A DNA stretch of 19,748 nucleotides from a virus (IMGVR_UViG_647533161_000006); one strand, 5' to 3'; positions 2,395 through 19,748 are shown, counted from the stretch's first letter. The notes: generated by a model from the letters alone, not told the origin. Made by a program: numbers and translations.

Positions 2395-2404
2395 TCTGTT
2401 GTTG

Positions 2405-4039: not shown

Positions 4040-4044
4040 CCGTT

Positions 4045-4559: not shown

Positions 4560-4692
4560 TTTTTGGGACTCCTGGCTGATTAAGTATGTCGATAAGGCGT
4601 TTCCATCCGTCACGTAATTTACGGGTGATTCGTTCAAGTAAAGATTCGGAAGGGCAGCCAGCAACAGGCCACCCTGCAATGGCATATTGCAT
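4528..4692 (-). CDS. cIII: CIII (FtsH/HflB inhibitor protecting CII), 54 aa
   Basis: ATG at 4692-4690 and an ending …NTYGYPD* were translated by hand (MQYAIAG…); overlaps kil in another frame as in lambda. Not in the ORF track because it is under 60 aa. Confidence 0.8.
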   Translation of the reverse strand: MQYAIAGWPVAGCPSESLLERITRKLRDGWKRLIDILNQPGVPKNGSNTYGYPD

Positions 4693-4764
4693 GGTGTGCT
4701 CCTTATTTATACATAACGAAAAACGCCTCGAGTGAAGCGTTATTGGTATGCGGTAACGCCGCGC

Positions 4765-5133: not shown

Positions 5134-5150
5134 CTATTCATATCCTCACA

Positions 5151-5180
5151 GATAAAAAATCGCCCTCACATTGGAGGGCA
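5151..5180 (-). terminator. Intrinsic terminator on the minus strand (tL-type)
   Basis: Minus strand reads GCCCTC-CAATGT-GAGGGC followed by GATTTTTTATC; sits upstream of ea10 within the leftward operon, so it would be read through under N antitermination. Confidence 0.5.
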
Positions 5181-5393
5181 AAGAAGATTTCCAATAATCA
5201 GAACAAGTCGGCTCCTGTTTAGTTACGAGCGACATTGCTCAGTGTATTCACTCGTTGGAATGAATACACAGTGCAGTGTTTATTAGTATGCCTGTCTTTT
5301 AACCACATCAGGCTCGGTGGTTCTCGTGTACCCCTACAGCGAGAAATCGGATAAACTCTATTCACCCCTACAGAGAGCAAAAGAGAAACGCCG

Positions 5394-5975
5394 ATGAACA
5401 ACTCATGGTGGCAGGAACTAATGCATTTTTTCCTGCAAGGAATGACACTTAAACAGTTGATTCATATGCTAATCATCCTGATCATATTGATTATTGTTAT
5501 GCCTGTAAGCGTAAAAGAATGGATAAACCTGCATAATCCAGAAATCCTTCCTCATTACTGGATGTATTACATCCTGTTGTTTTGCGTTAGCTATGTGCTT
5601 AACGGCGTTGTTAATTCCGCTTATCACGCTGTGACTGTAAGAATTGAGATATTCGCTGCTCAGAAGCGCAAATCTAAAGAAGAGAAATACGTGCAAGATT
5701 TGTTTGATTCGTTAACTCTTGGAGAAAGAGCGTATTTGGCATTCGCTGTAGCCGCTAATAACCAGCTAAAGACAGAAAAGGGAAGCCCTGAAGCAATCTC
5801 ATTGCTCGAAAAAGGGCTTCTTATTCGGGTACCTTCTGCTACTGGATATCCTGAAATCGACCGTTTTGTTATCCCGGAACGCTATAGAAATGAGTGCTAC
5901 ATTAGGTTTGCTGGGAAGAAAGACAGTCTTATGGATGAACTTATCGCTCAGGATAAGCATGGCAAAAACAAGTAA
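5394..5975 (+). CDS. sieB: Superinfection exclusion protein B (SieB)-like inner-membrane protein, 193 aa as drawn
   Basis: Plus-strand ORF convergent with N, with a strongly hydrophobic N-terminal region (LIHMLIILIILIIVMPVSV…YWMYYILLFCVSYVLNGVV); recognised as SieB-like from memory of lambda SieB. The true start may be an internal Met. Confidence 0.7.
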   Translation: MNNSWWQELMHFFLQGMTLKQLIHMLIILIILIIVMPVSVKEWINLHNPEILPHYWMYYILLFCVSYVLNGVVNSAYHAVTVRIEIFAAQKRKSKEEKYVQDLFDSLTLGERAYLAFAVAANNQLKTEKGSPEAISLLEKGLLIRVPSATGYPEIDRFVIPERYRNECYIRFAGKKDSLMDELIAQDKHGKNK

Positions 5976-5991
5976 TTAGCAAATGAATTTA

Positions 5992-6300
5992 TCATCTCGC
6001 CGTCAGTTGTTTTGATTTCCGGTAGCCTGCCGCGTAAATAGCTACGTTTGGCAGGCAAACACTTCCACTGCATTCATCTACTTTCTTGCAGCGAAGGCTT
6101 CCGAGTGATATTGCTTTTTCAGAAAGGCTTAACCGCTTTCTCGGGTCTTCCTGAACAGGTTCCTCACTGTCTGTGCCGAAGATCGAATCGATGATGTTGC
6201 AGATGGAATCACGCTCGATGGCCAGCTTTCTGCGCCGCTCATGACGGCGAGTTTTGGCATTTCCTGCAAATGTTGATTTTCCGTACACGATTACCGTCAT
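5992..6300 (-). CDS. N: N-type transcription antiterminator, P22 gene 24-like, 102 aa from ATG at 6300
   Basis: Arginine-rich motif GNAKTRRHERRRKLAIER near the N-terminus (MTVIVYGKSTFAGNAKTRRHERRRKLAIERD…) matches the P22-type N ARM. The ORF-track entry starts 28 codons upstream at a non-ATG start. Confidence 0.82.
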   Translation of the reverse strand: MTVIVYGKSTFAGNAKTRRHERRRKLAIERDSICNIIDSIFGTDSEEPVQEDPRKRLSLSEKAISLGSLRCKKVDECSGSVCLPNVAIYAAGYRKSKQLTAR

Positions 6301-6418
6301 GATGTTTTCCTCATGTGAAATGGCTTTGGTGGTGATGCGCCAGATGCTGATCTTCTGGTTGCTGTCGTTACTGCTGCAATTCACATCACCCCAAACCCAT
6401 CTCGTTTGGTATCTGTTC

Positions 6419-6453
6419 GCGCTTTGTCAGCGCATCATCGAAGTTAAAGAGCC
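6419..6453 (-). promoter_or_regulatory. nutL: nutL (boxA plus boxB), P22 type
   Basis: Minus strand reads GGCTCTTTAAC (boxA-like) then GCGCTGACAAAGCGC (boxB hairpin, from 6419-6433), the P22-type nutL boxB, about 120 nt upstream of the N start. Confidence 0.72.
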
Positions 6454-6489
6454 TGCCAATCTGTTCCGTTTGGCTGCCAGCGTCCTGCT

Positions 6490-6545
6490 GATGGCGATTA
6501 TAATGAACCAATAGTTCGATATTATCAAGAACTATAAGTACGAAT
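6490..6545 (-). promoter_or_regulatory. Putative pL promoter and oL operator region
   Basis: Minus strand carries TATAAT (plus 6497-6502) and a TTGATA -35-like hexamer (plus 6523-6528) at a non-ideal spacing. Partial dyads (GAACTATAAGTAC, GAACCAATAGTTC) share the AGTAC/ACT..AGT motif seen in the cI-cro operator region. Exact operators not resolved. Confidence 0.35.
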
Positions 6546-6710
6546 TGTTTGTGGTTCATTAACTTAATGAGATATGTTTTTGATATGTAAAGGAATTTAT
6601 TTTTGTAAAGATTGAAGATTGGTCAGTAGGAGAGAAAGAATTGTTTGCTGGCGTGTTAGTTCGTGGGTTAGCACATGTGCGGATGTTAAATAAGGTAGAC
6701 GATCGTGAGG

Positions 6711-6736
6711 AAAAGAAAAACCGGCGCTGAGGCCGG
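6711..6736 (-). terminator. Intrinsic terminator closing the cI/gene-X transcription unit
   Basis: Minus strand reads CCGGCC-TCAGCG-CCGG (GC-rich hairpin) followed by TTTTTCTTTT, a few nt after the gene-X stop codon (6743-6745) and before the putative pL. Confidence 0.55.
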
Positions 6737-6742
6737 GTATAA

Positions 6743-7642
6743 TTATTTGATTATTTCTTTTATAAAGACTTCTTTCGGTTGGTATTTTTTATCTGATGAT
6801 TTGAGCTGGTACGTTATTGTTATATCAGCACGTACAGAAAATTTACCTGCAAAATCTGATGGGTTTACGTTGGGGCCAAGAACCATATTTACTCTTCGAT
6901 CTATTAATCCAGGGATAACAGCAGCCCAACCTTTCTCTGGATTGTCGAGGTCTAATGCACGGATTTCAACATCAACATCAAAATGATCCTGAGTATATGA
7001 CTCTGGTGTGAAGACAACTTCAGTTGGGGCTTTTTTAATGGTTTCAGCGGGAATGGTCACTGTACCACCCCCTGTACCTATGACCATCGTAGATCCTTCG
7101 TCTGCCCTAGCTGGGGCAAGCGTCTTAATGGAACTTTTGGCAAGAGTCTTCTTATTGGTTACCGTGCTTTCTATGATTGCTTGAAGACGGTCAGGTGAAA
7201 TATTAGCCTCACCGGCACCAATATTGATGATTGTATTGTTATTTGCTTCAAAGTGGGAGGTGTTGCTTGGAGCCATAGCCTTAGTTGCTAGAACTAAGCC
7301 ATATCCAACCAGACCAATAACAACAGCACCAACGAGAGCGTTTCTCATTTTCCCATTTCCGATCTTTGCATGAGCGCCAGCAAGAAACTTGTCCATTTCT
7401 TCTTGGCTACCAAAGAGGAGTTTAATAACAATATCTTCATAAAGGCTTCCTGCTTCTAATCGCGCAACATGCACCGATATATCAAGGATATTAGCCCCTG
7501 TCAGTTCCTGCAAAACACCTTCTGATTGTTTTGCGATGGCCTCCCACCCTTGAAGGGAGGTAATCACATCTTTGATGCTTACAGGTTCTTTAGTTGAATA
7601 ATATATGTTTTCGGTAAAGGTTAAAGATAATTCTTGGGACAT
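6743..7642 (-). CDS. Uncharacterised single-pass membrane protein, 299 aa, in the rexAB-equivalent slot
   Basis: Long ATG-initiated ORF (ATG 7642-7640) with a GAGGG SD upstream, co-oriented with and downstream of cI. One hydrophobic segment (NALVGAVVIGLVGYGLVLATKAMA) separates an N-terminal ~100-aa domain from a Gly/Thr-rich ~175-aa C-terminal domain. Visibly AT-rich compared with flanking phage genes; no family recognised. Confidence 0.7.
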   Translation of the reverse strand: MSQELSLTFTENIYYSTKEPVSIKDVITSLQGWEAIAKQSEGVLQELTGANILDISVHVARLEAGSLYEDIVIKLLFGSQEEMDKFLAGAHAKIGNGKMRNALVGAVVIGLVGYGLVLATKAMAPSNTSHFEANNNTIINIGAGEANISPDRLQAIIESTVTNKKTLAKSSIKTLAPARADEGSTMVIGTGGGTVTIPAETIKKAPTEVVFTPESYTQDHFDVDVEIRALDLDNPEKGWAAVIPGLIDRRVNMVLGPNVNPSDFAGKFSVRADITITYQLKSSDKKYQPKEVFIKEIIK

Positions 7643-7771
7643 CCGAGCCCTCGCTGTTTCTTTCGATTTGCTGTGTTAAGCTAATATTTTAATATCCATG
7701 TTTCTGTTTGCTTGCAGTGTGTTTCTCACCACCATCCAAACGTACTGGTTACTAGCTATGTGATGATGAAG

Positions 7772-8479
7772 TCATGAACTTTTCAGCCATTCCCTGGCCT
7801 CGATGTCATCTAGGTGGCGAGATTGCTTCAGAATACCAGCTACATACTCCACCTTTGCTACTTGATGATAAGGCAACGTTATTGGCCTGTGGTCTTGGTT
7901 GATGCTTGTAAATTGGTATTCTCCGTCTCTGTCATAGCCAAGAACCTTGATCATGTTGTGCCCTTCAATGGTTCTGACAAACACCTCATCACCTGGGAAT
8001 ACTTTGGTGTTAGGCTCAATGAGTACATATTCTCCTGATTTTATTCTGGGCCACATGCTGTCTCCTTTTACACGAAGACCAAAGGCATCTGGATCATCGC
8101 TATAAATCTTGAGCCACCCATCGCGCTCTTCGGTCATCTCGATGGCACCATCAACACCAAGAATTGCCTCACCAACCACGCGCACTAACCCTTTTTTTAA
8201 TTTGCCAACAATTGAAAAAGTATCTTCATCATTCGCTCCATTTAACGAAGTGCCGTGCTGAAGCCAAACAACATCAACGTTTAGAAATTTCGCAAGCGCA
8301 TTCATTTTTTCCTGGCGTGGTAAAGACTCAGCATTAAACCATTTGCTAACGCCTTTGGACGAAAGAGAAAGGGCACGGGCTATGGCCATTCCCCTACCAT
8401 GTTCATCAAGACCAGCTTCTTTACAGGCTTGCGCTAGCCGCTGGGCGAATTCTTTGCGCACTTTTTCATTCTGAACCAT
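7772..8479 (-). CDS. cI: CI-like prophage repressor (N-terminal HTH, C-terminal S24 LexA-like autopeptidase), 235 aa
   Basis: C-terminal domain contains GDSMWP (Ser nucleophile motif of S24 peptidases) and a downstream Lys; N-terminal region is HTH-like. Divergent from cro across a short operator region. Not lambda CI or P22 C2 by sequence. Confidence 0.85.
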   Translation of the reverse strand: MVQNEKVRKEFAQRLAQACKEAGLDEHGRGMAIARALSLSSKGVSKWFNAESLPRQEKMNALAKFLNVDVVWLQHGTSLNGANDEDTFSIVGKLKKGLVRVVGEAILGVDGAIEMTEERDGWLKIYSDDPDAFGLRVKGDSMWPRIKSGEYVLIEPNTKVFPGDEVFVRTIEGHNMIKVLGYDRDGEYQFTSINQDHRPITLPYHQVAKVEYVAGILKQSRHLDDIEAREWLKSS

Positions 8480-8557
8480 GAGTACGATACTAAAGCACTT
8501 GCAAAAACTTTCAGTTCAACCATAATGCGTACTGAAAGTACGAAAAAGGACATTCCT
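8480..8557. promoter_or_regulatory. oR / pR / pRM divergent control region
   Basis: 78-bp cI-cro intergenic with a plus-strand -35 TTGCAA (8499-8504), 16-bp spacer, -10 CATAAT (8521-8526). Dyads CGTACTGAAAGTACG (8528-8542) and AACTTTCAGTT (8506-8516) overlap the promoter as candidate operators. pRM not resolved. Confidence 0.5.
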
Positions 8558-8785
8558 ATGCAAAATCTTGATGAGCCGATTAAAGGTGTCGGCATCCCTG
8601 AAGTTGCGAAGGCTTGTGGAGTTAGCGAAAGGGCTGTCTATAAGTGGCTCAAAAACGGCTTCCTCCCTAAGACTGAGTTTTTTGGGAAAACGAAATACGC
8701 ATCAAAAATCGAAGAGATTTCTGGTGGCAAATATCAAGCAAGCGAAATGCTTGAAATAAGCAAAAAGAACCTTCTGGCAGCATAA
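8558..8785 (+). CDS. cro: Cro-like HTH regulator, 75 aa from ATG 8558
   Basis: First rightward gene, opposite cI; AAAAAGGA SD precedes ATG 8558; HTH-like segment GIPEVAKACGVSERAVYKWLKNG. The ORF-track start at 8525 lies inside the operator region and is less likely. Confidence 0.7.
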   Translation: MQNLDEPIKGVGIPEVAKACGVSERAVYKWLKNGFLPKTEFFGKTKYASKIEEISGGKYQASEMLEISKKNLLAA

Positions 8786-8792
8786 GTAACAC

Positions 8793-8827
8793 CGCTCTTT
8801 ATCAATCTGCACCGCCGACAACGCGGT
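8793..8827 (+). promoter_or_regulatory. nutR: nutR (boxA CGCTCTTTA plus boxB ACCGCCGACAACGCGGT), P22 type
   Basis: boxA at 8793-8801 and boxB hairpin at 8811-8827, just downstream of the cro stop; boxB matches the P22-type nutR. Confidence 0.7.
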
Positions 8828-8891
8828 AACTAATTAAGAACTCATCGAAAGATGCGTATTAGTGATTATTTACCTATGGAAATAGTAAGAA

Positions 8892-9191
8892 ATGGAACAA
8901 ACAAATTACAGCAAACTATCACAGCGCGACGTTGATCGCGCAGAAACAGATTTACTTATCAACCTGTCAACGCTTACTCAGCGCGGTCTGGCAAAGATGA
9001 TTGGCTGTCATGAATCGAAGATAAGCAGAACAGACTGGAGGTTTATAGCTTCGGTCTTGTGTGCTTTTGGCATGGCATCAGACATCAGTCCGATTAGCAG
9101 AGCTTTTAAGTATGCGCTTGATGAAATCACCAATAAAAAACGCCCGGTGTGCAAGACCGAGCGTTCTGAACAAATCCAGATGGAGTTCTGA
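8892..9191 (+). CDS. cII: CII transcriptional activator (lysogeny establishment), 99 aa
   Basis: C-terminus …TNKKRPVCKTERSEQIQMEF matches the lambda CII C-terminus; the N-terminal half is divergent (mosaic). Confidence 0.8.
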   Translation: MEQTNYSKLSQRDVDRAETDLLINLSTLTQRGLAKMIGCHESKISRTDWRFIASVLCAFGMASDISPISRAFKYALDEITNKKRPVCKTERSEQIQMEF

Positions 9192-9213
9192 GGTCATTAC
9201 TGGATCTATCAAC
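9131..9213 (-). ncRNA. oop: oop-like antisense RNA (overlaps the cII 3' end)
   Basis: Minus strand across the cII end/O start reads …CTGGATTTGTTCAGAACGCTCGGTCTTGCACACCGGGCGTTTTTTATTG, closely resembling lambda oop RNA and its hairpin plus U-tract terminator, though the stem is altered. Coordinates inferred from the lambda arrangement. Confidence 0.45.
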
Positions 9214-9223
9214 AGGAGTCATT

Positions 9224-10123
9224 ATGACAAATACAGCAAAAATACTCAACTTCGGCAGAGGTAACTTTGCCGGACAGGAGCGTAATGTGGCAGATCTCGA
9301 TGATGGTTACGCCAGACTATCAAATATGCTGCTTGAGGCTTATTCGGGCGCAGATCTGACCAAGCGACAGTTTAAAGTGCTGCTTGCCATTCTGCGTAAA
9401 ACCTATGGGTGGAATAAACCAATGGACAGAATCACCGATTCTCAACTTAGCGAGATTACAAAGTTACCTGTCAAACGGTGCAATGAAGCCAAGTTAGAAC
9501 TCGTCAGAATGAATATTATCAAGCAGCAAGGCGGCATGTTTGGACCAAACAAAAACATCTCAGAATGGTGCATCCCTCAAAACGAGGGAAAATCCCCTAA
9601 AACGAGGGATAAAACATCCCTCAAATTGGGGGATTGCTATCCCTCAAAACAGGGGGACACAAAAGACACTATTACAAAAGAAAAAAGAAAAGATTATTCG
9701 TCCGAGAATTCTGGCGAATCCTCTGACCAGCCAGAAAACGATCTTTCTGTGGTTAAACCGGATGCTGCAATTCAGAGCGGCAGTAAGTGGGGAACAGCAG
9801 AAGACCTGACCGCCGCAGAGTGGATGTTTGACATGGTGAAGACCATCGCGCCATCAGCCAGAAAACCGAATTTTGCTGGGTGGGCTAACGATATCCGCCT
9901 GATGCGTGAACGTGACGGACGTAACCACCGCGATATGTGTGTGCTTTTCCGCTGGGCCTGCCAGGACAACTTCTGGTCCGGTAACGTGCTGAGTCCGGCC
10001 AAACTCCGCGACAAGTGGACCCAGCTCGAAATCAACCGTAACAAGCAACAGGCTGGCGTGACAGCCGGAAAACCAAAACTCGACCTGACAAACACTGACT
10101 GGATTTACGGGGTGGATCTATGA
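9224..10123 (+). CDS. O: Replication initiator O, 299 aa
   Basis: Translation is essentially lambda O throughout (MTNTAKILNFGRGNFAGQERNVADLDDGYARLSNMLLEAY…TNTDWIYGVDL). Confidence 0.95.
   Translation: MTNTAKILNFGRGNFAGQERNVADLDDGYARLSNMLLEAYSGADLTKRQFKVLLAILRKTYGWNKPMDRITDSQLSEITKLPVKRCNEAKLELVRMNIIKQQGGMFGPNKNISEWCIPQNEGKSPKTRDKTSLKLGDCYPSKQGDTKDTITKEKRKDYSSENSGESSDQPENDLSVVKPDAAIQSGSKWGTAEDLTAAEWMFDMVKTIAPSARKPNFAGWANDIRLMRERDGRNHRDMCVLFRWACQDNFWSGNVLSPAKLRDKWTQLEINRNKQQAGVTAGKPKLDLTNTDWIYGVDL
9562..9690 (+). repeat. ori-lambda: four iterons plus adjacent AT-rich segment inside O
   Basis: Repeated units ATCCCTCAAAACGAGGGA / AATCCCCTAAAACGAGGGA / ACATCCCTCAAATTGGGGGA / TTGCTATCCCTCAAAACAGGGGGA, followed by the A-rich stretch AAAAGACACTATTACAAAAGAAAAAAGAAAAG. 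Confidence 0.85.
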
Positions 10124-10821
10124 AAAACATCGCCGCACAGATGGTTAACTTTGACCGTGAGCAGATGCGTCGGATCGCCAACAACATGCCGGAACAGTAC
10201 GACGAAAAGCCACAGGTACAGCAGGTAGCGCAGATCATCAACGGTGTGTTCAGCCAGTTACTGGCAACTTTCCCGGCGAGCCTGGCTAACCGTGACCAGA
10301 ACGAACTGAACGAAATCCGCCGCCAGTGGGTTCTGGCTTTCCGGGAAAACGGGATCACCACAATGGAACAGGTTAACGCAGGAATGCGCGTAGCCCGTCG
10401 GCAGAATCGACCATTTCTGCCATCACCCGGGCAGTTTGTTGCATGGTGCCGGGAAGAAGCATCCGTTATCGCCGGACTGCCAAACGTCAGCGAGCTGGTT
10501 GATATGGTTTACGAGTATTGCCGGAAGCGAGGCCTGTATCCGGATGCGGAGTCTTATCCGTGGAAATCAAATGCGCACTACTGGCTGGTTACCAACCTGT
10601 ATCAGAACATGCGGGCCAATGCGCTTACTGATGCGGAATTACGCCGTAAGGCCGCAGATGAGCTTGTCCATATGACTGCGAGAATTAACCGTGGTGAGGC
10701 GATCCCTGAACCAGTAAAACAACTTCCTGTCATGGGCGGTAGACCTCTAAATCGTGCACAGGCTCTGGCGAAGATCGCAGAAATCAAAGCTAAGTTCGGA
10801 CTGAAAGGAGCAAGTGTATGA
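10120..10821 (+). CDS. P: Replication protein P (DnaB helicase loader), 233 aa
   Basis: Translation is near-identical to lambda P; start overlaps the O stop (ATGA). Confidence 0.95.
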   Translation: MKNIAAQMVNFDREQMRRIANNMPEQYDEKPQVQQVAQIINGVFSQLLATFPASLANRDQNELNEIRRQWVLAFRENGITTMEQVNAGMRVARRQNRPFLPSPGQFVAWCREEASVIAGLPNVSELVDMVYEYCRKRGLYPDAESYPWKSNAHYWLVTNLYQNMRANALTDAELRRKAADELVHMTARINRGEAIPEPVKQLPVMGGRPLNRAQALAKIAEIKAKFGLKGASV

Positions 10822-11108
10822 CGGGCAAAGAGGCAATTATTCATTACCTGGGGACGCATAATAGCTTCTGTGCGCCGGACGTTGCCGCGCTAACAGGCGC
10901 AACAGTAACCAGCATAAATCAGGCCGCGGCTAAAATGGCACGGGCAGGTCTTCTGGTTATCGAAGGTAAGGTCTGGCGAACGGTGTATTACCGGTTTGCT
11001 ACCAGGGAAGAACGGGAAGGAAAGATGAGCACGAACCTGATTTTCAAGGAGTGTCGCCAGAGTGCCGCGATGAAACGGGTATTGGCGGTATATGGAGTTA
11101 AAAGATGA
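10818..11108 (+). CDS. ren: Ren (protects against Rex exclusion), 96 aa
   Basis: Translation matches lambda Ren; start overlaps the P stop. Confidence 0.88.
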   Translation: MTGKEAIIHYLGTHNSFCAPDVAALTGATVTSINQAAAKMARAGLLVIEGKVWRTVYYRFATREEREGKMSTNLIFKECRQSAAMKRVLAVYGVKR

Positions 11109-11132
11109 CCATCTACATTACTGAGCTAATAA

Positions 11133-11165
11133 CAGGCCTGCTGGTAATCGCAGGCCTTTTTATTT
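11133..11165 (+). terminator. Intrinsic terminator (tR2-equivalent) between ren and ninB
   Basis: AGGCCTGC-TGGTAATC-GCAGGCCT hairpin followed by TTTTTATTT on the plus strand. Confidence 0.65.
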
Positions 11166-11181
11166 GGGGGAGAGGGAAGTC

Positions 11182-11622
11182 ATGAAAAAACTAACCTTTG
11201 AAATTCGATCTCCAGCACATCAGCAAAACGCTATTCACGCAGTACAGCAAATCCTTCCAGACCCAACCAAACCAATCGTAGTAACCATTCAGGAACGCAA
11301 CCGCAGCTTAGACCAAAACAGGAAGCTATGGGCCTGCTTAGGTGACGTCTCTCGTCAGGTTGAATGGCATGGTCGCTGGCTGGATGCAGAAAGCTGGAAG
11401 TGTGTGTTTACCGCAGCATTAAAGCAGCAGGATGTTGTTCCTAACCTTGCCGGGAATGGCTTTGTGGTAATAGGCCAGTCAACCAGCAGGATGCGTGTAG
11501 GCGAATTTGCGGAGCTATTAGAGCTTATACAGGCATTCGGTACAGAGCGTGGCGTTAAGTGGTCAGACGAAGCGAGACTGGCTCTGGAGTGGAAAGCGAG
11601 ATGGGGAGATCGGGCTGCATGA
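11182..11622 (+). CDS. ninB: NinB (Orf family recombination mediator), 146 aa
   Basis: From ATG 11182 (MKKLTFEIRSPAHQQNAIHAVQQILPDP…) the translation matches lambda NinB; the ORF-track start is 6 codons upstream. Confidence 0.85.
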   Translation: MKKLTFEIRSPAHQQNAIHAVQQILPDPTKPIVVTIQERNRSLDQNRKLWACLGDVSRQVEWHGRWLDAESWKCVFTAALKQQDVVPNLAGNGFVVIGQSTSRMRVGEFAELLELIQAFGTERGVKWSDEARLALEWKARWGDRAA

Positions 11623-12146
11623 CTATCAAATCAAATACGCCAGCACACGACAAGGACTGCTGGCAAACGCCGCTTTGGCTTTTTGATGCACTGGATATTG
11701 AGTTTGGATTCTGGCTGGATTCGGCAGCGAGCGACAAAAATGCTCTGTGTGCTCACTGGCTAACTGAGGCCGACGACGCGCTCAATTCTGAGTGGGTAAG
11801 CCACGGTGCAATCTGGAATAACCCACCGTACAGCAATATCAGGCCGTGGGTGGAAAAAGCCGCTGAGCAGTGCATACAACAGCGACAGACGGTAGTTATG
11901 CTTGTGCCAGAGGATATGTCAGTCGGATGGTTCAGCAAGGCTCTGGAGAGTGTCGACGAAGTTCGCATTATCACTGATGGACGGATTAATTTTATCGAAC
12001 CATCGACAGGGCTGGAGAAGAAGGGAAACAGCAAAGGCTCCATGCTGCTGATTTGGCGACCGTTCATCAGTCCTCGACGGATGTTTACTACCGTATCCAA
12101 AGCGGCATTGATGGCGATCGGGCAGGGCGTCAGGAGGGCGGCATGA
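11619..12146 (+). CDS. Phage DNA N6-adenine methyltransferase (Dam-family, orphan), about 175 aa
   Basis: ATG 11619 overlaps the ninB stop (ATGA). Translation contains the NPPY catalytic motif (…[15 protein letters not shown]…) characteristic of N6-adenine methyltransferases. Occupies the nin position where lambda has ninC/ninD. No adjacent restriction gene. Confidence 0.8.
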
Positions 12147-12319
12147 GGCGACAGCGACGAAGTTTCACCGACATCATCTGCGAAAACTGCAAATACCTTC
12201 CAACGAAACGCTCCAGAAATAAACGCAAGCCAATCCCAAAAGAATCTGACGTAAAAACCTTCAATTACACAGCTCACCTGTGGGATATCCGGTGGCTAAG
12301 ATATCGTGCGAGGAAATGA
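12143..12319 (+). CDS. ninE: NinE, 58 aa
   Basis: Internal ATG 12143 overlapping the methyltransferase stop gives [58 protein letters not shown], recognised as NinE-like. Confidence 0.7.
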
Positions 12320-12663
12320 CAATGGATTATTCACAGTTAAGTGATTTTGAAATTAACAGAATGGTAGGAGACATAATTTTTAAAGGCCTTTGGGCAAGTA
12401 AACCGGAAACATCAGGGAATAACACCAACAAATGGTATTACGGAAATGCTGATACAACTTTTGAGCCATTAAATCATTTGCCTGACTACTGCAATGATCC
12501 GAGCGCTTCATGGCCGATTATTGAGAAATACAGGATTTCTATCTTAGACCAGTTAACTGAATGGTGTGTGGATGCAAAAGGCGTAAGCCCAATATTTGAT
12601 ACCAGACCTCTCCGCGCCGCCATTATTGTCTTTCTCCTGATGCAGGAGGCCAATAATGCTTAG
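12316..12663 (+). CDS. Hypothetical nin-region protein, about 114-116 aa
   Basis: ATG at 12316 overlaps the ninE stop; an alternative ATG at 12322 has an AGGAA SD 6 nt upstream. No family recognised with confidence. Confidence 0.5.
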
Positions 12664-12850
12664 CCCATCTCAATCCCTTCAATACCTGAAAGGAAGCATA
12701 GAGCGGGCTTCAATGTGCACAGAGTGGATTCTATCTAGGTTTAGCGCATACAGAAGATTGCCGGTAAAGGGCATGCCAAGCAAGTCGATGCTGCATATGC
12801 AAAAGAATGCGCGCGGGAAGGTATGGCGAGAACGCAGGTTATCTGGCTGA
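12656..12850 (+). CDS. Small nin-region ORF, 64 aa (possible NinF-like N-terminus; may be a fusion or decayed gene)
   Basis: ATG-initiated ORF overlapping the previous gene's end; only the first ~18 residues look NinF-like to me (from memory, uncertain). Terminates 20 nt before rusA in a different frame from the remnant listed next. Confidence 0.35.
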
Positions 12851-12873
12851 AAGAGGGGGTAATTAAGGCGTGA
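12745..12873 (+). pseudogene. Start-less 42-codon reading frame running into the rusA start (possible 3' remnant of a ybcO-like gene)
   Basis: Hand translation of the frame ending at TGA 12871-12873: [42 protein letters not shown]. It has an upstream in-frame stop at 12742-12744 and no plausible start; the attribution to ybcO/DUF1364 is from memory and tentative. Confidence 0.3.
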
Positions 12874-13232
12874 ATACTTACCACATCACACTACCCTGGC
12901 CTCCGAGCAATAATCGCTATTATCGCCATAATCGCGGGCGCACGCACGTCAGCGCAGAGGGGCAGGCATACCGCGATAACGTCGCCCGAATCATTAAAAA
13001 CGCAATGCTGGATATCGGCCTGGCGATGCCTGTGAAAATCCGCATTGAGTGCCACATGCCGGATCGCCGTCGCCGTGACCTGGATAATCTGCAAAAAGCC
13101 GCTTTTGACGCACTCACCAAAGCAGGTTTCTGGCTGGATGATGCTCAGGTCGTTGATTACCGCGTTGTGAAGATGCCTGTTACCAAAGGTGGGAGGCTGG
13201 AATTGACCATCACCGAAATGGGGAATGAATGA
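12870..13232 (+). CDS. rusA: RusA Holliday-junction resolvase, 120 aa (GTG start)
   Basis: Translation [95 protein letters not shown]… matches RusA of E. coli lambdoid prophages. Confidence 0.92.
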
Positions 13233-13369
13233 TGTTTGAGTTTTATATGGCAGAACGTCTTCGCCACCGCTGGGTGCGTCTGCGCTTATATCGTTTCCCC
13301 GGTTCTGTTTTGACCGATTACCGAATACTGAAGAATTACGCCAAAACACTGACAGGAGCAGGAGTATGA
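13229..13369 (+). CDS. ylcG: YlcG-like small protein, 46 aa
   Basis: Hand-translated [46 protein letters not shown]; start overlaps the rusA stop; rusA-ylcG-Q order as in DLP12-type prophages. Confidence 0.55.
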
Positions 13370-13454
13370 AGTCAGAGATAACAATCAACTAATACTGTTT
13401 TGCTGATTTTTGCTTGTAATTGGCGTTCTGGTCTGATTTTTGTGGAGTAAGTTG

Positions 13455-13832
13455 ATGCGTGATATTCAGATGGTTCTTGAGCGTTGGGGAGCGTGGGCGG
13501 CTAATAATCATGAAGATGTGACCTGGTCGTCCATTGCCGCCGGTTTTAAGGGATTAATTCCTTCAAAAGTAAAATCTCGCCCGCAATGTTGTGACGATGA
13601 CGCGATGATCATTTGCGGGTGCATGGCCCGTCTGAAAAATAACAACAGCGATTTGCATGATTTGTTAGTGGACTATTATGTCGGCGGCATGACTTTTATG
13701 GCGCTTGCGCGTAAGCATGGTAGATCTGATTGTTGGATTGGCAGGATGCTCCAAAAAGCTGAGGGCGTAGTGGAGGGCATGCTGATGGTGTTGGATCTCA
13801 GATTGGAGATGGATGCTGATTGTTTGAGATAA
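13455..13832 (+). CDS. Q: Late-gene antiterminator Q (phage 82 / DLP12 QuuD type), 125 aa
   Basis: From ATG 13455 (GGAG SD 8 nt upstream): [76 protein letters not shown]… recognised as 82-type Q. The ORF-track entry starts at an upstream TTG. Confidence 0.82.
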
Positions 13833-13930
13833 TTAAAGGAAAAGTTGCTGTCTGGTTATCATTAGACTAATGTTTCAAATGTTAGAATCGCAACGTAGTT
13901 ATGATCATATAACAGCTTGTTCCCTGATTT
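13833..13930 (+). promoter_or_regulatory. Expected PR' late promoter and qut site region (not resolved to bases)
   Basis: Immediately downstream of Q and upstream of a plus-strand terminator, as in lambdoid late-control regions; candidate -10 TAGAAT at 13883-13888 but no well-spaced -35. Confidence 0.35.
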
Positions 13931-13959
13931 AGCCAGCCTCCCCAAAGGCTGGTTTTTTT
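13931..13959 (+). terminator. Intrinsic terminator (tR'-equivalent) downstream of Q
   Basis: AGCCAGCC-TCCCCAAA-GGCTGG hairpin followed by TTTTTTT on the plus strand. Confidence 0.6.
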
Positions 13960-13987
13960 CTAATAAGTATCAATCCGGTTAGGTATT

Positions 13988-14512
13988 TTATTGTTTGACC
14001 CATAATAGTTCATTGACATTGAATCCCAATTTTTGAGCAGTACGCACATAGTCTGCTTTTACATTATCTGGAATAGTTGGAGTCCGTGCCAGAATCCATA
14101 GGTATTCTCTGTTCGGACCACTGACAAGAGCATACTTATACTCATCATCCAGTTTGATTACATTATAGCCACCATAGAAGGGGCCAAAAAACGAAACCTT
14201 CAACGCTGCAGTTGTATTATCTCCTGTAAAGTATGCTTTACCTTCGCTCTCGCTCCATTTGTTTTTCGTTGGGTCATATCCACGATTAAGTACACTAATC
14301 CCTCCGTCGTTCCGTTTCCCATAAGTGGCGCTGACCTGTTCCAGACCACGTTCAAATCGGTTCTCAAGCCGAGCTATTTCATACCATTTTCCGAGGTAGC
14401 GGTTGGTGTCAAAATTTGTAATCGGCTGCACACCTTTAGGTGGTGTCGGGGCCTTACATGCTATCAGAGTGAAAGAGAGTGCAATGCCAGTCAACACAGG
14501 CCATAACTTCAT
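13988..14512 (-). CDS. Blc-like outer-membrane lipocalin lipoprotein, 174 aa (moron)
   Basis: Signal peptide with lipobox (…FTLIAC) then lipocalin-type sequence (NFDTNRYLGKWYEIARLENRFERGLEQV…KVSFFGPFYGGYNVI…YLWILARTP) closely resembling bacterial lipocalin Blc; opposite strand to the late operon. Confidence 0.85.
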   Translation of the reverse strand: MKLWPVLTGIALSFTLIACKAPTPPKGVQPITNFDTNRYLGKWYEIARLENRFERGLEQVSATYGKRNDGGISVLNRGYDPTKNKWSESEGKAYFTGDNTTAALKVSFFGPFYGGYNVIKLDDEYKYALVSGPNREYLWILARTPTIPDNVKADYVRTAQKLGFNVNELLWVKQ

Positions 14513-14704
14513 AATATATCCTGTACTTTTGATAGTTGAGAGTAAGTATTAAAGATAGATGATTACTACCGATCACCTAAAGAACTTTCCTACTATATTA
14601 GGAATAGTCCATAACAAAAAAATTGTCAGTGATGACGGCAGAAAGGCAGTTTAGGTCGTGTACTACACTGTTAACCTGTTAATGAATTAGTCAAGGGGTA
14701 GGCA

Positions 14705-15664
14705 ATGATAAAAAAACCTGTCGTTGGGATCAGTGGTTGTTTGGCCGGTTCTTCTGTCCGTTTTGATGGTGGTCACAAAAGAGCTAGCTTTTTAATGGAC
14801 AAATTACTGGAATGGGTAACATTCAAACCAGTATGTCCGGAAATGGCTATAGGGCTTCCAGTTCCGCGTCCTGCTCTACGTCTTGTTCGCTCGGCGCAAG
14901 GAAATATACGGATGTGTTTCAGCCACGACCAGAATGAGGATGTTACAGAGAAAATGACAGAGTTTAGTCGTTCTTATCTTGACAAATTAAAGGATGTATC
15001 GGGATTTGTGGTTTGTGCAAAATCTCCTAGCTGTGGTATGGAACGCGTGCGTGTATATGATGAAAATGGTAATCGTGGTCGTAAAGATGGAGTGGGACTA
15101 TTTACGAGCACGTTGATGGAAAGGTTTTCCTGGCTACCGGTTGAAGAGGATGGGCGACTACATGATCCAGTGCTTCGTGAAAACTTTGTTGAAAGAGTAT
15201 TTGCTTTACATGAGCTCAATCATCTTTATAAAGCGAAATTATCAAGAAGGGAATTATTAGCTTTTCATAGCCGTTATAAGCTTCAGTTGTTGGCGCATAG
15301 CCAGGCCGGTTATAAAGAGATGGGGCCATTTGTGGCTGCAATACATGAGTGGGCAGACCTTGAATCATACTTTGAGGTGTATCGTGAGAAGCTGATGGCG
15401 ATTCTCAGAAAACCTGCATCACGTAAAAATCACACGAATGTGCTGATGCATATACAGGGATATTTTAGTAACTGCTTAAATACACGTCAGCGTAAAGAGT
15501 TGAGCGATGTTATACTTAACTATCGAGCTGGCACGCTACCTCTTCTTGCGCCATTAACTTTGCTGAAGCATTACTTGGCAGAGTATCCTGATGATTATTT
15601 GCTTATACAGAATTACTTCCACCCCTATCCTGATGAACTGGCTCTAAGACTCTTGGTGAACTAG
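14705..15664 (+). CDS. DUF523/DUF1722-like two-domain protein (TudS/YbgA-like), 319 aa (moron)
   Basis: ATG 14705 with AAGGGGTAGG SD. N-terminal half has Cys-containing motifs (GISGCLAGSSVRFDGG, PVCPE, CAKSPSCGME) reminiscent of DUF523/TudS-type Fe-S proteins; C-terminal half resembles DUF1722. Family call is from memory, not a search. Confidence 0.6.
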   Translation: MIKKPVVGISGCLAGSSVRFDGGHKRASFLMDKLLEWVTFKPVCPEMAIGLPVPRPALRLVRSAQGNIRMCFSHDQNEDVTEKMTEFSRSYLDKLKDVSGFVVCAKSPSCGMERVRVYDENGNRGRKDGVGLFTSTLMERFSWLPVEEDGRLHDPVLRENFVERVFALHELNHLYKAKLSRRELLAFHSRYKLQLLAHSQAGYKEMGPFVAAIHEWADLESYFEVYREKLMAILRKPASRKNHTNVLMHIQGYFSNCLNTRQRKELSDVILNYRAGTLPLLAPLTLLKHYLAEYPDDYLLIQNYFHPYPDELALRLLVN

Positions 15665-15982
15665 GCGTTTGGAATGCACCAACAAGATGATTTTCTCCTT
15701 AGAGAATGTTTACAATCGTAAAAACTTCACTATGATATCTATAGTTGTACAGTTTGTAAAAAAATTCGGTTCATGCTTAAGGTAATGTTAATATGTTAAT
15801 TAATGATTAATAATCAAGCAAGCCAAAAATAGTTCTGTTTAATCTAGTATTACATAAATATTTTAAAGAAAATATCAAAGTTCATGATGATATAATGAGA
15901 TTTTTCTCATTGAAAATATGGCAATTTTAATATTTCCACCTATACTTACTTAACTCAAATCTAATTATGTCAGGTGGATGGT

Positions 15983-16714
15983 ATGCCATGCATATGTTCT
16001 ATCATTTTGGTTTTGAACTCGTTTGATATCCGGCTTGGTAAAGAAAAAATCTCTCTAAAAAAAGGAAGTGTTGTTGCTATAGAATACAATTTAAAAGTTT
16101 TCTTTTCTTCAAATAAAGATAATATAATGATCGTGGATATTGAAGAGAAAACAGTTAATGACTTCTTTAAAAACAATACACTCTCACCTTTTTCTGTAAG
16201 AAGATTTTATTCAGCATACTTGATAGTAAACTGTACAGACTATTCATTGTTAAAGAACTTGATAGGTTGCTTGAATTGTGATGGTGAAACTACGGCTGTA
16301 GTTAAAAATTCAATATTATTTGCATGTCTTGCTATTTTATCCTCGGAAAAAATGTTTCAGAGTTTTTTGTTTGGGTGTCTTAATAGTTTAGGAAGCAAAG
16401 TTAAGGCTATTATTCACTCGGACATATCTGCAGCATGGAGACTTTGTGATATTTCTTCAAGACTATGTCTGAGTGAAAGTTTGTTAAAAAGAAAACTAAA
16501 ACACGAAGGCTTATCATTTAGCAAATTAATTCTTGAAGAACGAATGGTGATGGCTGAAAGGTTATTAAGCTACAATTTCTATCCTGTTGGGAAAGTTGCT
16601 AAAATATGTGGTTATGAAAGCGCGTCATATTTTATAAGTGTTTTCAGAAGATATTTTGGTGTTCCCCCCCATGAATATTCATCAAGATTTTTTTTAGAAA
16701 AAGGCAAGATGTAA
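15983..16714 (+). CDS. AraC/XylS-family transcriptional regulator, about 243 aa (moron; very AT-rich)
   Basis: C-terminal AraC-type HTH signature (…GKVAKICGYESASYFISVFRRYFGVPPHEY…). In-frame ATG 15983 with AGGTGG SD 7 nt upstream (the ORF-track entry starts at GTG 15974). Preceded by ~300 bp of extremely AT-rich DNA. Confidence 0.75.
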   Translation: MPCICSIILVLNSFDIRLGKEKISLKKGSVVAIEYNLKVFFSSNKDNIMIVDIEEKTVNDFFKNNTLSPFSVRRFYSAYLIVNCTDYSLLKNLIGCLNCDGETTAVVKNSILFACLAILSSEKMFQSFLFGCLNSLGSKVKAIIHSDISAAWRLCDISSRLCLSESLLKRKLKHEGLSFSKLILEERMVMAERLLSYNFYPVGKVAKICGYESASYFISVFRRYFGVPPHEYSSRFFLEKGKM

Positions 16715-16776
16715 CGTGATGCGTTTTGATGATTTTGTAATTTTCATATTTGATGATTATATGATGCTTTCAGCTA

Positions 16777-16807
16777 CGCCAGAATAATCGCTGGCGTTTT
16801 TCTTTTC
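16777..16807 (+). terminator. Intrinsic terminator downstream of the AraC-like gene
   Basis: CGCCAG-AATAATCG-CTGGCG hairpin followed by TTTTTCTTTT on the plus strand. Confidence 0.55.
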
Positions 16808-16881
16808 TAATGTAACTTCTGTATCTTTCCCTCTTTCATTCCAAACCGTGTACACCATCCGTTATTCGCGGAGGTGAGGCT

Positions 16882-17097
16882 ATGAAATCCATGGACAAGT
16901 TAACAACGGGCATTGCCTACGGCACCTCTGCAGGCAGTGCTGGCTACTGGTTTTTACAGTGGCTTGATCAGGTCAGTCCGTCACAGTGGGCGGCGATTGG
17001 AGTGCTTGGAAGCCTTGTGTTGGGTTTTCTCACTTATCTGACAAACCTTTATTTCAAGATTAAAGAAGATAAGCGTAAGGCTGCGAGAGGTGAATAA
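16882..17097 (+). CDS. S: Pinholin S21 (dual-start: antiholin from Met1, holin from Met4), 71 aa
   Basis: [71 protein letters not shown] matches the phage 21 pinholin, including the M-K-x-M dual-start motif; GGAGGTGAGG SD. Confidence 0.9.
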
Positions 17098-17594
17098 TGT
17101 CGCCATCATTACGCAAGGCTGTAGCAGCTGCTATTGGTGGTGGGGCTGTTGCCATAGCGTCTGTGCTCATCACTGGTCCGAGTGGTGACGATGGTCTGGA
17201 AGGTGTCAGCTACATACCATATAAAGATATTGTTGGTGTATGGACTGTATGTCACGGGCATACAGGAAAAGACATCATGCTCGGTAAAACGTATACCAAA
17301 GCAGAATGCAAAGCACTCTTGAATAAAGACCTTGCCACTGTCGCCAGACAAATTAACCCGTACATCAAAGTCGATATACCGGAAACAACGCGCGGCGCTC
17401 TTTACTCATTCGTTTACAACGTGGGTGCTGGCAATTTCAGAACATCGACGCTTCTTCGCAAAATAAACCAGGGCGATATCAAAGGCGCATGTGATCAGTT
17501 ACGTCGCTGGACATATGCTGGCGGTAAGCAATGGAAAGGTCTCATGACTCGTCGTGAGATTGAGCGTGAAATCTGTTTGTGGGGTCAGCAATGA
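17097..17594 (+). CDS. R: SAR endolysin (phage 21 R-type lysozyme with N-terminal signal-anchor-release domain), 165 aa
   Basis: N-terminal weakly hydrophobic Gly/Ala-rich SAR segment ([20 protein letters not shown]) followed by a lysozyme-type domain; start overlaps the S stop (TAATG). Confidence 0.9.
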
Positions 17595-18052
17595 ACAGAG
17601 TAACCGCGATTATCTCCGCTCTGGTTATCTGCATCATCGTCTGCCTGTCATGGGCTGTTAATCATTACCGTGATAACGCCATTACCTACAAAGCCCAGCG
17701 CGACAAAAATGCCAGAGAACTGAAGCTGGCGAACGCGGCAATTACTGACATGCAGATGCGTCAGCGTGATGTTGCTGCGCTCGATGCAAAATACACGAAG
17801 GAGTTAGCTGATGCGAAAGCTGAAAATGATGCTCTGCGTGATGATGTTGCCGCTGGTCGTCGTCGGTTGCACATCAAAGCAGTCTGTCAGTCAGTGCGTG
17901 AAGCCACCACCGCCTCCGGCGTGGATAATGCAGCCTCCCCCCGACTGGCAGACACCGCTGAACGGGATTATTTCACCCTCAGAGAGAGGCTGATCACGAT
18001 GCAAAAACAACTGGAAGGAACCCAGAAGTATATTAATGAGCAGTGCAGATAG
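17591..18052 (+). CDS. Rz: Rz i-spanin, 153 aa from ATG 17591
   Basis: N-terminal transmembrane segment, coiled-coil-like periplasmic domain, start overlapping the R stop; contains the embedded Rz1 frame. Confidence 0.85.
17811..17993 (+). CDS. Rz1: Rz1 o-spanin lipoprotein, 60 aa, embedded in Rz in the +1 frame
   Basis: Signal peptide with lipobox (…LVVVGC) and a proline-rich mature region ([15 protein letters not shown]); GAAGGAG SD upstream of ATG 17811. Confidence 0.78.
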
Positions 18053-18083
18053 AGCTGCCCATATCGATGGGCAACTCATGCAA

Positions 18084-18377
18084 TTATTGTGAGCAATAGA
18101 CACGCGCTTCCAGCGGAGTATAAATGCCTAAAGTAATAAAACCGAGCAATCCATTTACGAATGTTTGCTGGGTTTCTGTTTTAACAACATTTTCTGCGCC
18201 GCCACAAATTTTGGCTGCATCAACAGTTTTCTCCTGTCCAATTCCCGAAACGAAGAAGTGATGGGTGATGGTTTCCTTTGGTGTTACTGCTGTCGGTTTG
18301 TTTCCAACAGTAAACGTCTGTTGAGCACATCCTGTAATAAGCATTGCCAGAGCGGCAGAAAACAACATTTTTTTCAT
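18084..18377 (-). CDS. bor: Bor outer-membrane lipoprotein (serum-resistance moron), 97 aa from ATG 18377
   Basis: MKKMLFSAALAMLITGCAQQTFTVGNKPTAVTPKETITHHFFVSGIGQEKTVDAAKICGGAENVVKTETQQTFVNGLLGFITLGIYTPLEARVYCSQ matches lambda Bor, with lipobox LITGC. Confidence 0.9.
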   Translation of the reverse strand: MKKMLFSAALAMLITGCAQQTFTVGNKPTAVTPKETITHHFFVSGIGQEKTVDAAKICGGAENVVKTETQQTFVNGLLGFITLGIYTPLEARVYCSQ

Positions 18378-18736
18378 CTTATTATCCTGCATTGTTAAAA
18401 ACGGCAGAATCCTATGTGACAACAATTAAACGATAGTTAAATGGATTGATGAAAATTAAAACTATATAGGTGGATGCTCAGCCTATTGGAGGAGGGGGGC
18501 ACTCAGAATCCTGTGGAATGAAATAAACCGCTCTTTCTGTCCATTACCCTTTTAGCTGCGCTGTATCGTCGCCGTATTCCCGCATTAACCATGACCGTAG
18601 CCCGACGGGGAATTCCTTCTGCGTGAGTGTGCGGGAATAATCAAAAACGATGCACACCGGGTTTTACTGTGCTGACAGACGCAGGGTTACCCTCATAGTC
18701 GCTTTTCCGGTGCGATGGTGGAAGAAACCGGGATGT

Positions 18737-18931
18737 TTATTCATCATCACTTTGGATTGATGTACATGCTCTCTTTTCTGACGTTAGTCTCCGACGGCAG
18801 GCTTCAATGACCCAGGCTGAGAAATTCCCAGACCCTTTTTGCTCAAGAGCGATGTTAATTTGTTCAATCATTTGGTTAGGAAAGCGGATGTTGCGGGTTG
18901 TTGTTCTGCGGGTTCTGTTCTTAGTTGACAT
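18737..18931 (-). CDS. Small basic protein, 64 aa (YlcI/DUF3950-like; possible DNA-binding)
   Basis: ATG-initiated ORF with an Arg/Thr-rich N-terminus (MSTKNRTRRTTTRNIRFPNQMIEQINIALEQ…); located between bor and cos. Family assignment from memory, weak. Confidence 0.45.
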   Translation of the reverse strand: MSTKNRTRRTTTRNIRFPNQMIEQINIALEQKGSGNFSAWVIEACRRRLTSEKRACTSIQSDDE

Positions 18932-19049
18932 GAGGTTGCCCCGTATTCAGTGTCGCTGATTTGTATTGTCTGAAGTTGTTTTTACGTTAAGTTGATGCAG
19001 ATCAATTAATACGATACCTGCGTCATAATTGATTATTTGACGTGGTTTG

Positions 19050-19310
19050 ATGGCGTAGATGCACGTTGTGACATGTAGATGATAATTATTATCATTTTGT
19101 GGGTCCTTTCCGGCGATCCGACAGGTTACGGGGCGGCGACCTCGCGGGTTTTCGCTATTTATGAAAATTTTCCGGTTTAAGGTGTTTCCGTTCTTCTTCG
19201 TCGTAACTTAATGTATTTATTTAAAATACCCCCTGAAAAGAAAGGAAACGACAGGTGCTGAAAGCGAGCTTTTTGGCCTCTGTCGTTTCCTTTCTCTGTT
19301 TTTGTCCGTG
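19050..19310. other. cos: cos site region: cosQ, cosN (12-nt cohesive-end sequence GGGCGGCGACCT at 19131-19142) and cosB upstream of nu1
   Basis: …GGGTCCTTTCCGGCGATCCGACAGGTTACG | GGGCGGCGACCTCGCGGGTTTTCGCTATTTATGAAAATTTTCCGGTTTAAGG… matches the lambda right-end/left-end junction with a few substitutions. Confidence 0.85.
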
Positions 19311-19319
19311 GAATGAGCA

Positions 19320-19748
19320 ATGGAAGTCAACAAAAAGCAGCTGGCTGACATTTTCGGTGCGAGTATCCGTACCATTCAGAACTGGCAGGAACAGGGAATG
19401 CCCGTTCTGCGAGGCGGTGGCAAGGGTAATGAGGTGCTTTATGACTCTGCCGCCGTCATAAAATGGTATGCCGAAAGGGATTCTGAAATTGAGAACGAAA
19501 AGCTGCGCCGGGAGGTTGAAGAACTGCGGCAGGCCAGCGAGGCAGATCTCCAGCCAGGAACTATTGAGTACGAACGCCATCGACTTACGCGTGCGCAGGC
19601 CGACGCACAGGAACTGAAGAATGCCAGAGACTCCGCTGAAGTGGTGGAAACCGCATTCTGTACTTTCGTGTTGTCGCGGATCGCAGGTGAAATTGCCAGT
19701 ATTCTCGACGGGCTCCCCCTGTCGGTGCAGCGGCGTTTTCCGGAACTG
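19320..19748 (+). CDS. nu1: Terminase small subunit Nu1 (N-terminal 143 codons; continues beyond the window)
   Basis: Hand translation MEVNKKQLADIFGASIRTIQNWQEQGMPVLRGGGKGNEVLYDSAAVIKWYAERDSEIENEKLRREVEELRQ… is essentially lambda Nu1; no stop before the window end. Confidence 0.92.
   Translation, partial: MEVNKKQLADIFGASIRTIQNWQEQGMPVLRGGGKGNEVLYDSAAVIKWYAERDSEIENEKLRREVEELRQASEADLQPGTIEYERHRLTRAQADAQELKNARDSAEVVETAFCTFVLSRIAGEIASILDGLPLSVQRRFPEL

Follow-up and report, generated by a model that had tools for sequence, protein, structure and literature searches.

A RudS-type tRNA 4-thiouridine desulfidase encoded in the Q-to-S cargo slot of 1H12-like lambdoid phages and Escherichia coli prophages

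We analyzed a stretch of viral DNA of 19,748 nucleotides (hereinafter the window), of which positions 1–19134, reaching from the integrase to where the phage records end on the right, share 100% DNA identity with the 1H12-like lambdoid phages. Its Q-to-S stretch, i.e., the segment lying between the antiterminator and the holin genes, is 99.9–100% identical to Escherichia phage 1H12 as well as to ten sister records. This segment and its immediate flanks display the following features:

12870–13232: RusA, upstream of Q
13440–13832, plus strand: antiterminator Q of the late operon (Pfam Phage_antitermQ, E = 2.5e-51; named Q in phage and E. coli annotations)
13931–13964, plus strand: intrinsic-terminator-like hairpin with a T-run just 3′ of Q (9-bp stem with 5 GC pairs, T7 tail)
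13988–14512, minus strand: blc-like gene for an outer-membrane lipocalin lipoprotein of 174 aa with the lipobox LIAC (Pfam Lipocalin_2, E = 2.2e-43)
14513–14704, no strand assigned: intergenic DNA separating the divergent blc-like and rudS genes (192 nt, GC 0.35)
14705–15664, plus strand: rudS, coding for a TudS (DUF523)–DUF1722 fusion (Pfam; identity to gp66 of phage 1H12)
15665–15982: AT-rich spacer of 318 nt from rudS to the araC-like gene
15983–16714, plus strand: araC-like gene for an AraC-family regulator of 243 aa, YdeO/GadX-like (Pfam HTH_18 and HTH_AraC; GC 0.31)
16776–16807, plus strand: terminator-like hairpin with a T-run between the araC-like gene and holin S, closing the cargo block
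16882–17097, plus strand: holin S of the P21 type (Pfam Phage_holin_2_1, E = 3e-35)
17097–17594, plus strand: lysozyme R (Pfam Phage_lysozyme, E = 1.3e-45)

The resulting gene order, namely RusA, Q, blc-like (minus strand), rudS, araC-like, S and R, agrees with the sequence-only reading that preceded this work, which had placed the gene of interest in a Q-to-S cargo region, divergent from a Blc-like gene. The cargo slot ends at S and R on its downstream side, and the block itself is bracketed by the two terminator-like hairpins (13931–13954 and 16776–16797, T-runs apart), both of which late transcription must read through. The cassette spanning 13833–16881 has a GC content of 0.374 (rudS 0.427, blc 0.436 and the araC-like gene 0.313), as against 0.47–0.50 for Q, S, R and the replication/nin region. 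The rudS gene is a single unbroken ORF on the plus strand that runs from the ATG at 14705 to the stop at 15664 and codes for 319 aa; this ATG, with a ribosome-binding site (AAGGGG) 7–12 nt before it, is the earliest start codon past the upstream stop, which excludes a longer version of the gene. The interval given for it earlier, 14513–15664, had the product length, the strand and the neighborhood right, but its left end is the base next to the blc-like start codon on the other strand, and it takes in the 192 nt of intergenic DNA along with the gene. Among the neighbors, Q may start at the ATG at 13455, as per the annotation in related records, and the araC-like gene has an alternative GTG start at 15974 that would give 246 aa, while the 1H12 annotation uses the ATG at 15983.

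Two further neighbors merit description. The blc-like product is recognized by the NCBIfam model NF007786 (“outer membrane lipoprotein Blc”) with 315.5 bits against a cut-off of 267, and its gene constitutes a second, phage-borne copy of blc. The best NCBIfam matches of the AraC-like protein are YdeO and GadX, both falling below cut-off. It resembles the class typified by PatE, PsrA and PsrB, a likeness that consists in these YdeO/GadX best matches and is to be taken as a lead only; the members of that class are known from the literature as prophage-encoded AraC-like activators of acid resistance and T3SS regulators in EHEC. We also considered its equation with “ORF242”, which lies beside ORF319 in the Salmonella SPI-2 region, and rejected it: the regulator that controls the Salmonella RudS_ST belongs to the MerR family (PMC11417400), in Kosakonia, rudS is preceded by a 242-aa gene that is likewise of the MerR/MlrA type, and the AraC-like gene is seen in prophage contexts only. 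Elsewhere in the window, a masked run of 568 Ns occupies 3359–3926 in the early-left region, and the ORFs called across it are artefacts. The sole Rfam match in the window is Lambda_thermo, the cIII thermoregulator RNA element (4647–4705, minus strand, 88.5 bits, E = 9e-21); Rfam recovered no riboswitch or sRNA within or close to rudS. The last ~600 nt (19135–19748) overshoot the matching linear phage records on the right, and each of these records also shows a second match place, a situation that fits an integrated or circularly permuted copy with an internal cos.

Late transcription of lambdoid phages starts at pR′, which lies immediately 3′ of Q and serves every late gene. Therefore, going by this architecture, a plus-strand gene in the Q-to-S slot would form part of the Q-antiterminated late transcript. 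By eye, we noted a pR′ candidate (TGtTAGAAT, about 13879–13887), and the hairpin at 13931 is a candidate tR′ that Q-modified polymerase would read through; it could also terminate blc transcription from the opposite strand. Both divergent genes, blc-like and rudS, are presumably transcribed from promoters within the 192-nt region that separates them. A promoter scan of this region returned a weak sigma-70-like match at 14536–14563 (9/12), with no more sites than expected from shuffled sequence. The spacer is conserved at 172 of its 192 positions between two prophage alleles; with the Kluyvera spacers, all it shares is a short motif close to the start of blc, and it cannot otherwise be aligned. 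Of the earlier proposal that the gene is a prophage moron, the dispensable slot and the distinct GC content stand; as to transcription signals of its own, there is the terminator-like site 3′ of the araC-like gene, and the promoter-like matches upstream of rudS are weak and at background number.

The product of rudS combines two domains in one polypeptide. The N-terminal one is the 2-thiouracil desulfurase domain (PF04463, formerly DUF523), which covers aa 7–149 and the entire profile (1–141 of 141; E = 3.6e-40, 137.7 bits vs a cut-off of 34.7), and it is followed by DUF1722 (PF08349) at aa 192–309, again with the profile matched throughout (1–117 of 117; E = 1.3e-40, 138.8 bits vs a cut-off of 22.5). 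This order, TudS/DUF523 first and then DUF1722, is the one that defines RudS, and both scores lie far above the curated cut-offs, bearing out an assignment that had initially been made from the pattern of cysteine motifs. The NCBIfam YbgA model also matches the C-terminal half, albeit below its cut-off, as is expected because YbgA is a DUF1722-only protein. The sole sequence match in the PDB is TudS (6Z92), a weak pairwise hit (E = 8.9e-05 over aa 7–119) in which C12, C44, E46, S107, S109 and C110 align with TudS C10, C43, E45, S101, S103 and C104.

In an alignment of 73 sequences, comprising the window protein and translations from 72 loci, C12, C44, C110, E46, R55, S107, R19 and D21 are invariant (73/73), the three Fe-S ligand cysteines being among them. 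Position 109 is S or T and position 20 is F or Y, while S239 and R240, which are implicated in tRNA contact, are nearly invariant. Mapped by offset from the conserved cysteines rather than by direct alignment with the RudS_KT sequence, the residues E46, S107, S109, R55, R19, F20, D21, S239 and R240 of the window protein correspond to E51, S111, S113, R60, R24, Y25, N26, S243 and R244 of RudS_KT, the Pseudomonas ortholog. In RudS_KT, mutation of the cluster cysteines or of the catalytic Glu, Ser or Arg abolished activity, mutants at residues matching the conserved set had activity abolished or reduced, and the Y25F variant behaved like the wild type (PMC11417400). From the ligand cysteines C12, C44 and C110, a [4Fe-4S] cluster is predicted for the phage protein; such a cluster has been shown biochemically for TudS and RudS_KT in published work, including PMC11417400.

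The window protein is identical at 319 of 319 positions to gp66 of Escherichia phage 1H12 (H3V29_gp66; NC_049947, YP_009909557.1), which Jamontas et al. (NAR 2024, PMC11417400) named RudS_vir and for which they listed Cys12, Cys44 and Cys110. These authors defined RudS as a TudS–DUF1722 fusion acting as a tRNA 4-thiouridine (s4U) desulfidase, with DUF1722 binding the tRNA anticodon arm (PMC11417400). Six RudS orthologs, RudS_vir included, lowered tRNA s4U between 4.7- and 26-fold when expressed in E. coli, while TudS alone or YbgA alone left it unchanged (PMC11417400). The reduction by RudS_vir was significant, as determined by HPLC-MS/MS upon plasmid overexpression in E. coli BL21(DE3) (PMC11417400). 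Thus, the molecular function is established in the literature for the identical protein and goes beyond prediction; the enzyme is already known and ordinary, the same sequence having been cloned and assayed before. The earlier idea that modified nucleosides of competing phages could be its target finds no support, the demonstrated substrate being s4U in host tRNA.

The published data also record peculiarities of the phage ortholog. Despite good soluble expression, RudS_vir was less active on tRNA, and yet it gave the shortest lag phase of the RudS orthologs when a uracil auxotroph was grown on free 4-thiouracil (PMC11417400). Activity on free 4-thiouracil was weak, 2-thiouracil was a substrate for none of the six orthologs, and no RudS protein, RudS_vir included, supported growth on thiouracils at the level of stand-alone TudS (PMC11417400). 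The combination of lower activity on tRNA with the shortest 4-thiouracil lag implies that the in vivo substrate preference of RudS_vir may differ from that of the chromosomal enzymes.

The closest chromosomal relatives of the phage protein come from Citrobacter, Klebsiella, Buttiauxella, Kluyvera, Kosakonia and Enterobacter, with 68–76% identity over the full length. In 19 enterobacterial chromosomal loci, a blc homolog (73–81% identical) lies divergently upstream of rudS; the pairing is chromosomal in Kluyvera, Kosakonia, Enterobacter, Buttiauxella, Lelliottia and Raoultella. In Kluyvera, blc directly adjoins rudS across a spacer of 113–116 nt, while about 10 other enterobacterial loci feature a MerR/MlrA-type regulator between the two. 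Klebsiella pneumoniae ATCC 13883 departs from this blc/MerR context of the other Enterobacteriaceae: there, genes for a flavin amine oxidase-like protein, a cyclopropane-fatty-acid-synthase-like protein, DUF2878 and DUF3833 lie upstream of rudS (1253–6004 of that locus). In the more distant relatives from Vibrio, Shewanella and Photobacterium (45–54% identity), a photolyase gene follows within a few bases 3′ of rudS, and light-responsive operons with rudS are described in PMC11417400. The phage rudS has neither an adjacent MerR/LitR-type regulator nor a photolyase gene. Because the divergent pairing is also chromosomal, blc and rudS were apparently captured together. Hence, it appears that the phage acquired an enterobacterial-type chromosomal blc–rudS block without the light-responsive regulator, and that the AraC-like gene joined separately.

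We found rudS in 1082 of the 5426 complete E. coli genomes, in 110 of them at a minimum of 99% identity and in 971 at 90–95%. Most of the gene is present in 1064 of the positive genomes, almost always on the chromosome, and the full Q-to-S cassette (at least 80% coverage) occurs in 943 complete E. coli genomes. For the ~92% allele, the prophage context was established from three genomes inspected one by one, as a Q-to-rrrQ query is uninformative for counting Qin-type contexts, the cassette alone making up 81% of it. In two of these, E. coli HS and strain E308, the cassette sits inside a Qin-like cryptic prophage (with essQ, ydfR, rrrQ, rzpQ, cspI and gnsB); that of HS shows visible decay, as it has an IS1 insertion and its ydfB and ydfR are cut short, while its rudS is intact. 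In the third, the cassette lies inside a DLP12-like prophage (ybcN, ninE, ybcO, rusA, ylcG ... essD, rrrD). In all, three distinct prophage backbones carry the cassette. The presence/absence comparison across related phages shows the rudS cassette in the 1H12-like phages and a porin gene in the same slot of the lambdoid phages ev243, ev099, PhiR30_1 and mEp332, where only the Q and S ends match (17% of the query). Among 50,697 phage records, full-length RudS was recovered only from 12 E. coli lambdoid phages.

About one in five complete E. coli genomes therefore carries rudS on a lambdoid (pro)phage, and the earlier remark that such an enzyme is unusual on a prophage was an overstatement. The same count bears on the literature, since RudS is said to be missing from E. 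coli both in PMC11417400 and in a review of 2026; this is true for K-12 and BL21 and false for the species. Apart from these genomes, short contigs assigned to Candidatus Nanosynbacter MAGs (two of the loci) carry the E. coli prophage Q–blc–rudS–araC–holin cassette with 88–98% protein identity, and a contig of an uncultured Clostridiales MAG codes for an enterobacterial-type RudS (76% identity); these occurrences are most likely binning contamination.

Comparison of the window allele with the ~92% allele shows that rudS is under purifying selection (dN/dS 0.11–0.14 at dS ~0.29); for blc, dN/dS is 0.07–0.10. The AraC-like protein diverges much faster, with 74–82% amino acid identity between the prophage alleles, as against 92–97% for the rudS and blc products. 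That rudS has stayed intact in Qin-like cryptic prophages otherwise in advanced decay is an argument that it benefits the host, and not the lytic cycle alone.

We are strongly confident that the locus as a whole is best explained by a RudS s4U desulfidase carried as Q-to-S cargo, whose probable expression in lysogens would blunt the response to UVA. Under this explanation, whose chemistry follows the published work on TudS and RudS, the TudS domain would hold its [4Fe-4S] cluster on Cys12, Cys44 and Cys110, with the free fourth iron binding the sulfur of 4-thiouridine, and Glu46, Ser107/Ser109 and Arg55 would convert s4U to U by non-redox hydrolytic desulfuration. The DUF1722 domain, for its part, would dock the tRNA anticodon arm such that position 8 (or 9) is brought to the active site, and RudS would erase s4U8, the near-UV (UVA) sensor of bacterial tRNA. 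Following Q antitermination, the gene would share the late-operon transcript, and it would probably be expressed in lysogens too. With less s4U8, fewer s4U8–C13 crosslinks would be expected to form under UVA, the growth delay would be shorter, and the ppGpp burst and stringent response would be weaker; consistent with this, RudS_KT reduced the UVA growth delay (PMC11417400). The activity data for RudS all derive from plasmid overexpression; expression from the prophage and a benefit to phage or lysogen we infer.

Our best guess as to the role of rudS is thus lysogenic conversion, with the near-UV growth delay of the lysogen being weakened, a reading suggested because the gene is under purifying selection in dead prophages and its homologs are tied to light-responsive genes. 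Since the phage copy lacks the MerR/LitR regulator and the photolyase gene, the UVA rationale is carried over from those homologs. A broader formulation is conceivable, though we hold it only tentatively and would sooner bet against it: prophage RudS might be a widespread lysogenic-conversion factor of E. coli that constitutively lowers s4U8 and, together with Blc, forms an “outside-the-gut survival” stress module that has lost light control and come under the governance of Q and the AraC-like protein. If true, prophage RudS would rewire the near-UV growth delay and stringent response of the host, and possibly the stability of tRNA-Tyr and tRNA-Ser. The gene would then be under Q antitermination, and perhaps under the adjacent AraC-like regulator, in a module with the stationary-phase lipocalin Blc that is selected even in dead prophages.

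An alternative, which we regard as unlikely, is that the enzyme serves the lytic cycle: transcribed from pR′ with the late genes, it would remodel the host tRNA during phage development, be it by keeping up translation after induction by sunlight or UV, by altering s4U-dependent tRNAs (Tyr, Ser) or by evading a tRNA-directed defence. In line with this, rudS shares the strand of the late operon and lies in the interval from Q and its terminator-like site to the lysis genes, such that Q-modified polymerase must transcribe it, and UV is a classic inducer of lambdoid prophages. To our knowledge, however, no tRNA-targeting defence depends on s4U, and expression late in the cycle would give little time to de-modify a stable tRNA pool. 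Although tRNA-Tyr and tRNA-Ser drop ~2-fold on RudS overexpression (PMC11417400), rudS is maintained intact, with dN/dS ~0.1, in defective Qin-like prophages that are incapable of a lytic cycle, and its replacement by a porin gene in closely related phages means that it is dispensable for lytic growth.

Less probable still is a role in small-molecule salvage, in which the protein would primarily be not a tRNA eraser but a TudS-like desulfidase acting on what tRNA turnover sets free, namely 4-thiouracil, 4-thiouridine or 4-thio-UMP. Its catalytic domain is a bona fide TudS domain, and the short lag of RudS_vir on 4-thiouracil, coupled with its lower tRNA desulfidation despite a high level of soluble protein (PMC11417400), points in this direction. 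Nevertheless, no RudS matched stand-alone TudS on thiouracils, and RudS_vir did significantly lower tRNA s4U (PMC11417400); moreover, its DUF1722 domain is complete, retains S239 and R240 and is under purifying selection. Finally, we give very little credence to neutral hitch-hiking, whereby a chromosomal blc–rudS fragment entered by illegitimate recombination and spread solely by linkage to Q and the lysis modules: the divergent pair in the chromosomes of Kluyvera, Kosakonia and Enterobacter, the GC content below that of the flanking phage genes and the movement of the cassette with Q and S among different backbones would all accord with it, but the dN/dS values at this dS make it unlikely, as do the retention of every catalytic residue and the full-length or near-full copies in 1064 of the 1082 positive genomes.

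The modest value of these observations lies in the population and context picture, which is absent from the portions of the RudS paper and of later reviews that were accessible to us. Given that 1082 of 5426 genomes are rudS-positive, s4U levels or UVA responses obtained with K-12 or BL21 may not be representative of a fifth of the natural isolates. Lysogens of 1H12 and E. coli HS offer a natural system for studying a tRNA-modification eraser at its native expression. The mismatch between the statement that E. coli lacks RudS and its presence in a fifth of the complete genomes may merit a note to specialists.

Turning to known systems, the closest is RudS_vir of phage 1H12 itself, which is the same protein with the same neighbors (Q, Blc, RudS, AraC-like and holin) and a protein-level difference of nil. 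RudS_ST of Salmonella enterica LT2 (ORF319, STM1389), compared here by its published description (PMC11417400), is also of 319 aa and has the same Cys12/Cys44/Cys110 numbering. Chromosomal enterobacterial RudS genes in general usually stand behind a MerR/MlrA-type, presumed light-responsive regulator, whereas the phage copy has an AraC-family gene 3′ of it and lies in the late operon. TudS (PDB 6Z92) is homologous to the N-terminal domain, its three cluster cysteines and catalytic Glu and Ser aligning with those of the phage protein; it differs in being without DUF1722, in acting on free thiouracils and 4-thio-UMP, and in not lowering tRNA s4U in vivo. The other half of the fusion is paralleled by E. 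coli K-12 YbgA (b0707), a stand-alone DUF1722 protein encoded upstream of phr that is 50% identical to aa 164–315 of RudS; indeed, PGAP names the phage protein “YbgA family protein”. Unlike the phage RudS, which has both domains, K-12 YbgA is without the catalytic domain, has no effect on s4U (PMC11417400), and is chromosomal and photolyase-linked; the K-12 sequence upstream of ybgA holds no remnant of a catalytic domain. The rudS–photolyase order of Vibrio, Shewanella and Photobacterium is the very arrangement seen in the K-12 remnant ybgA–phr.
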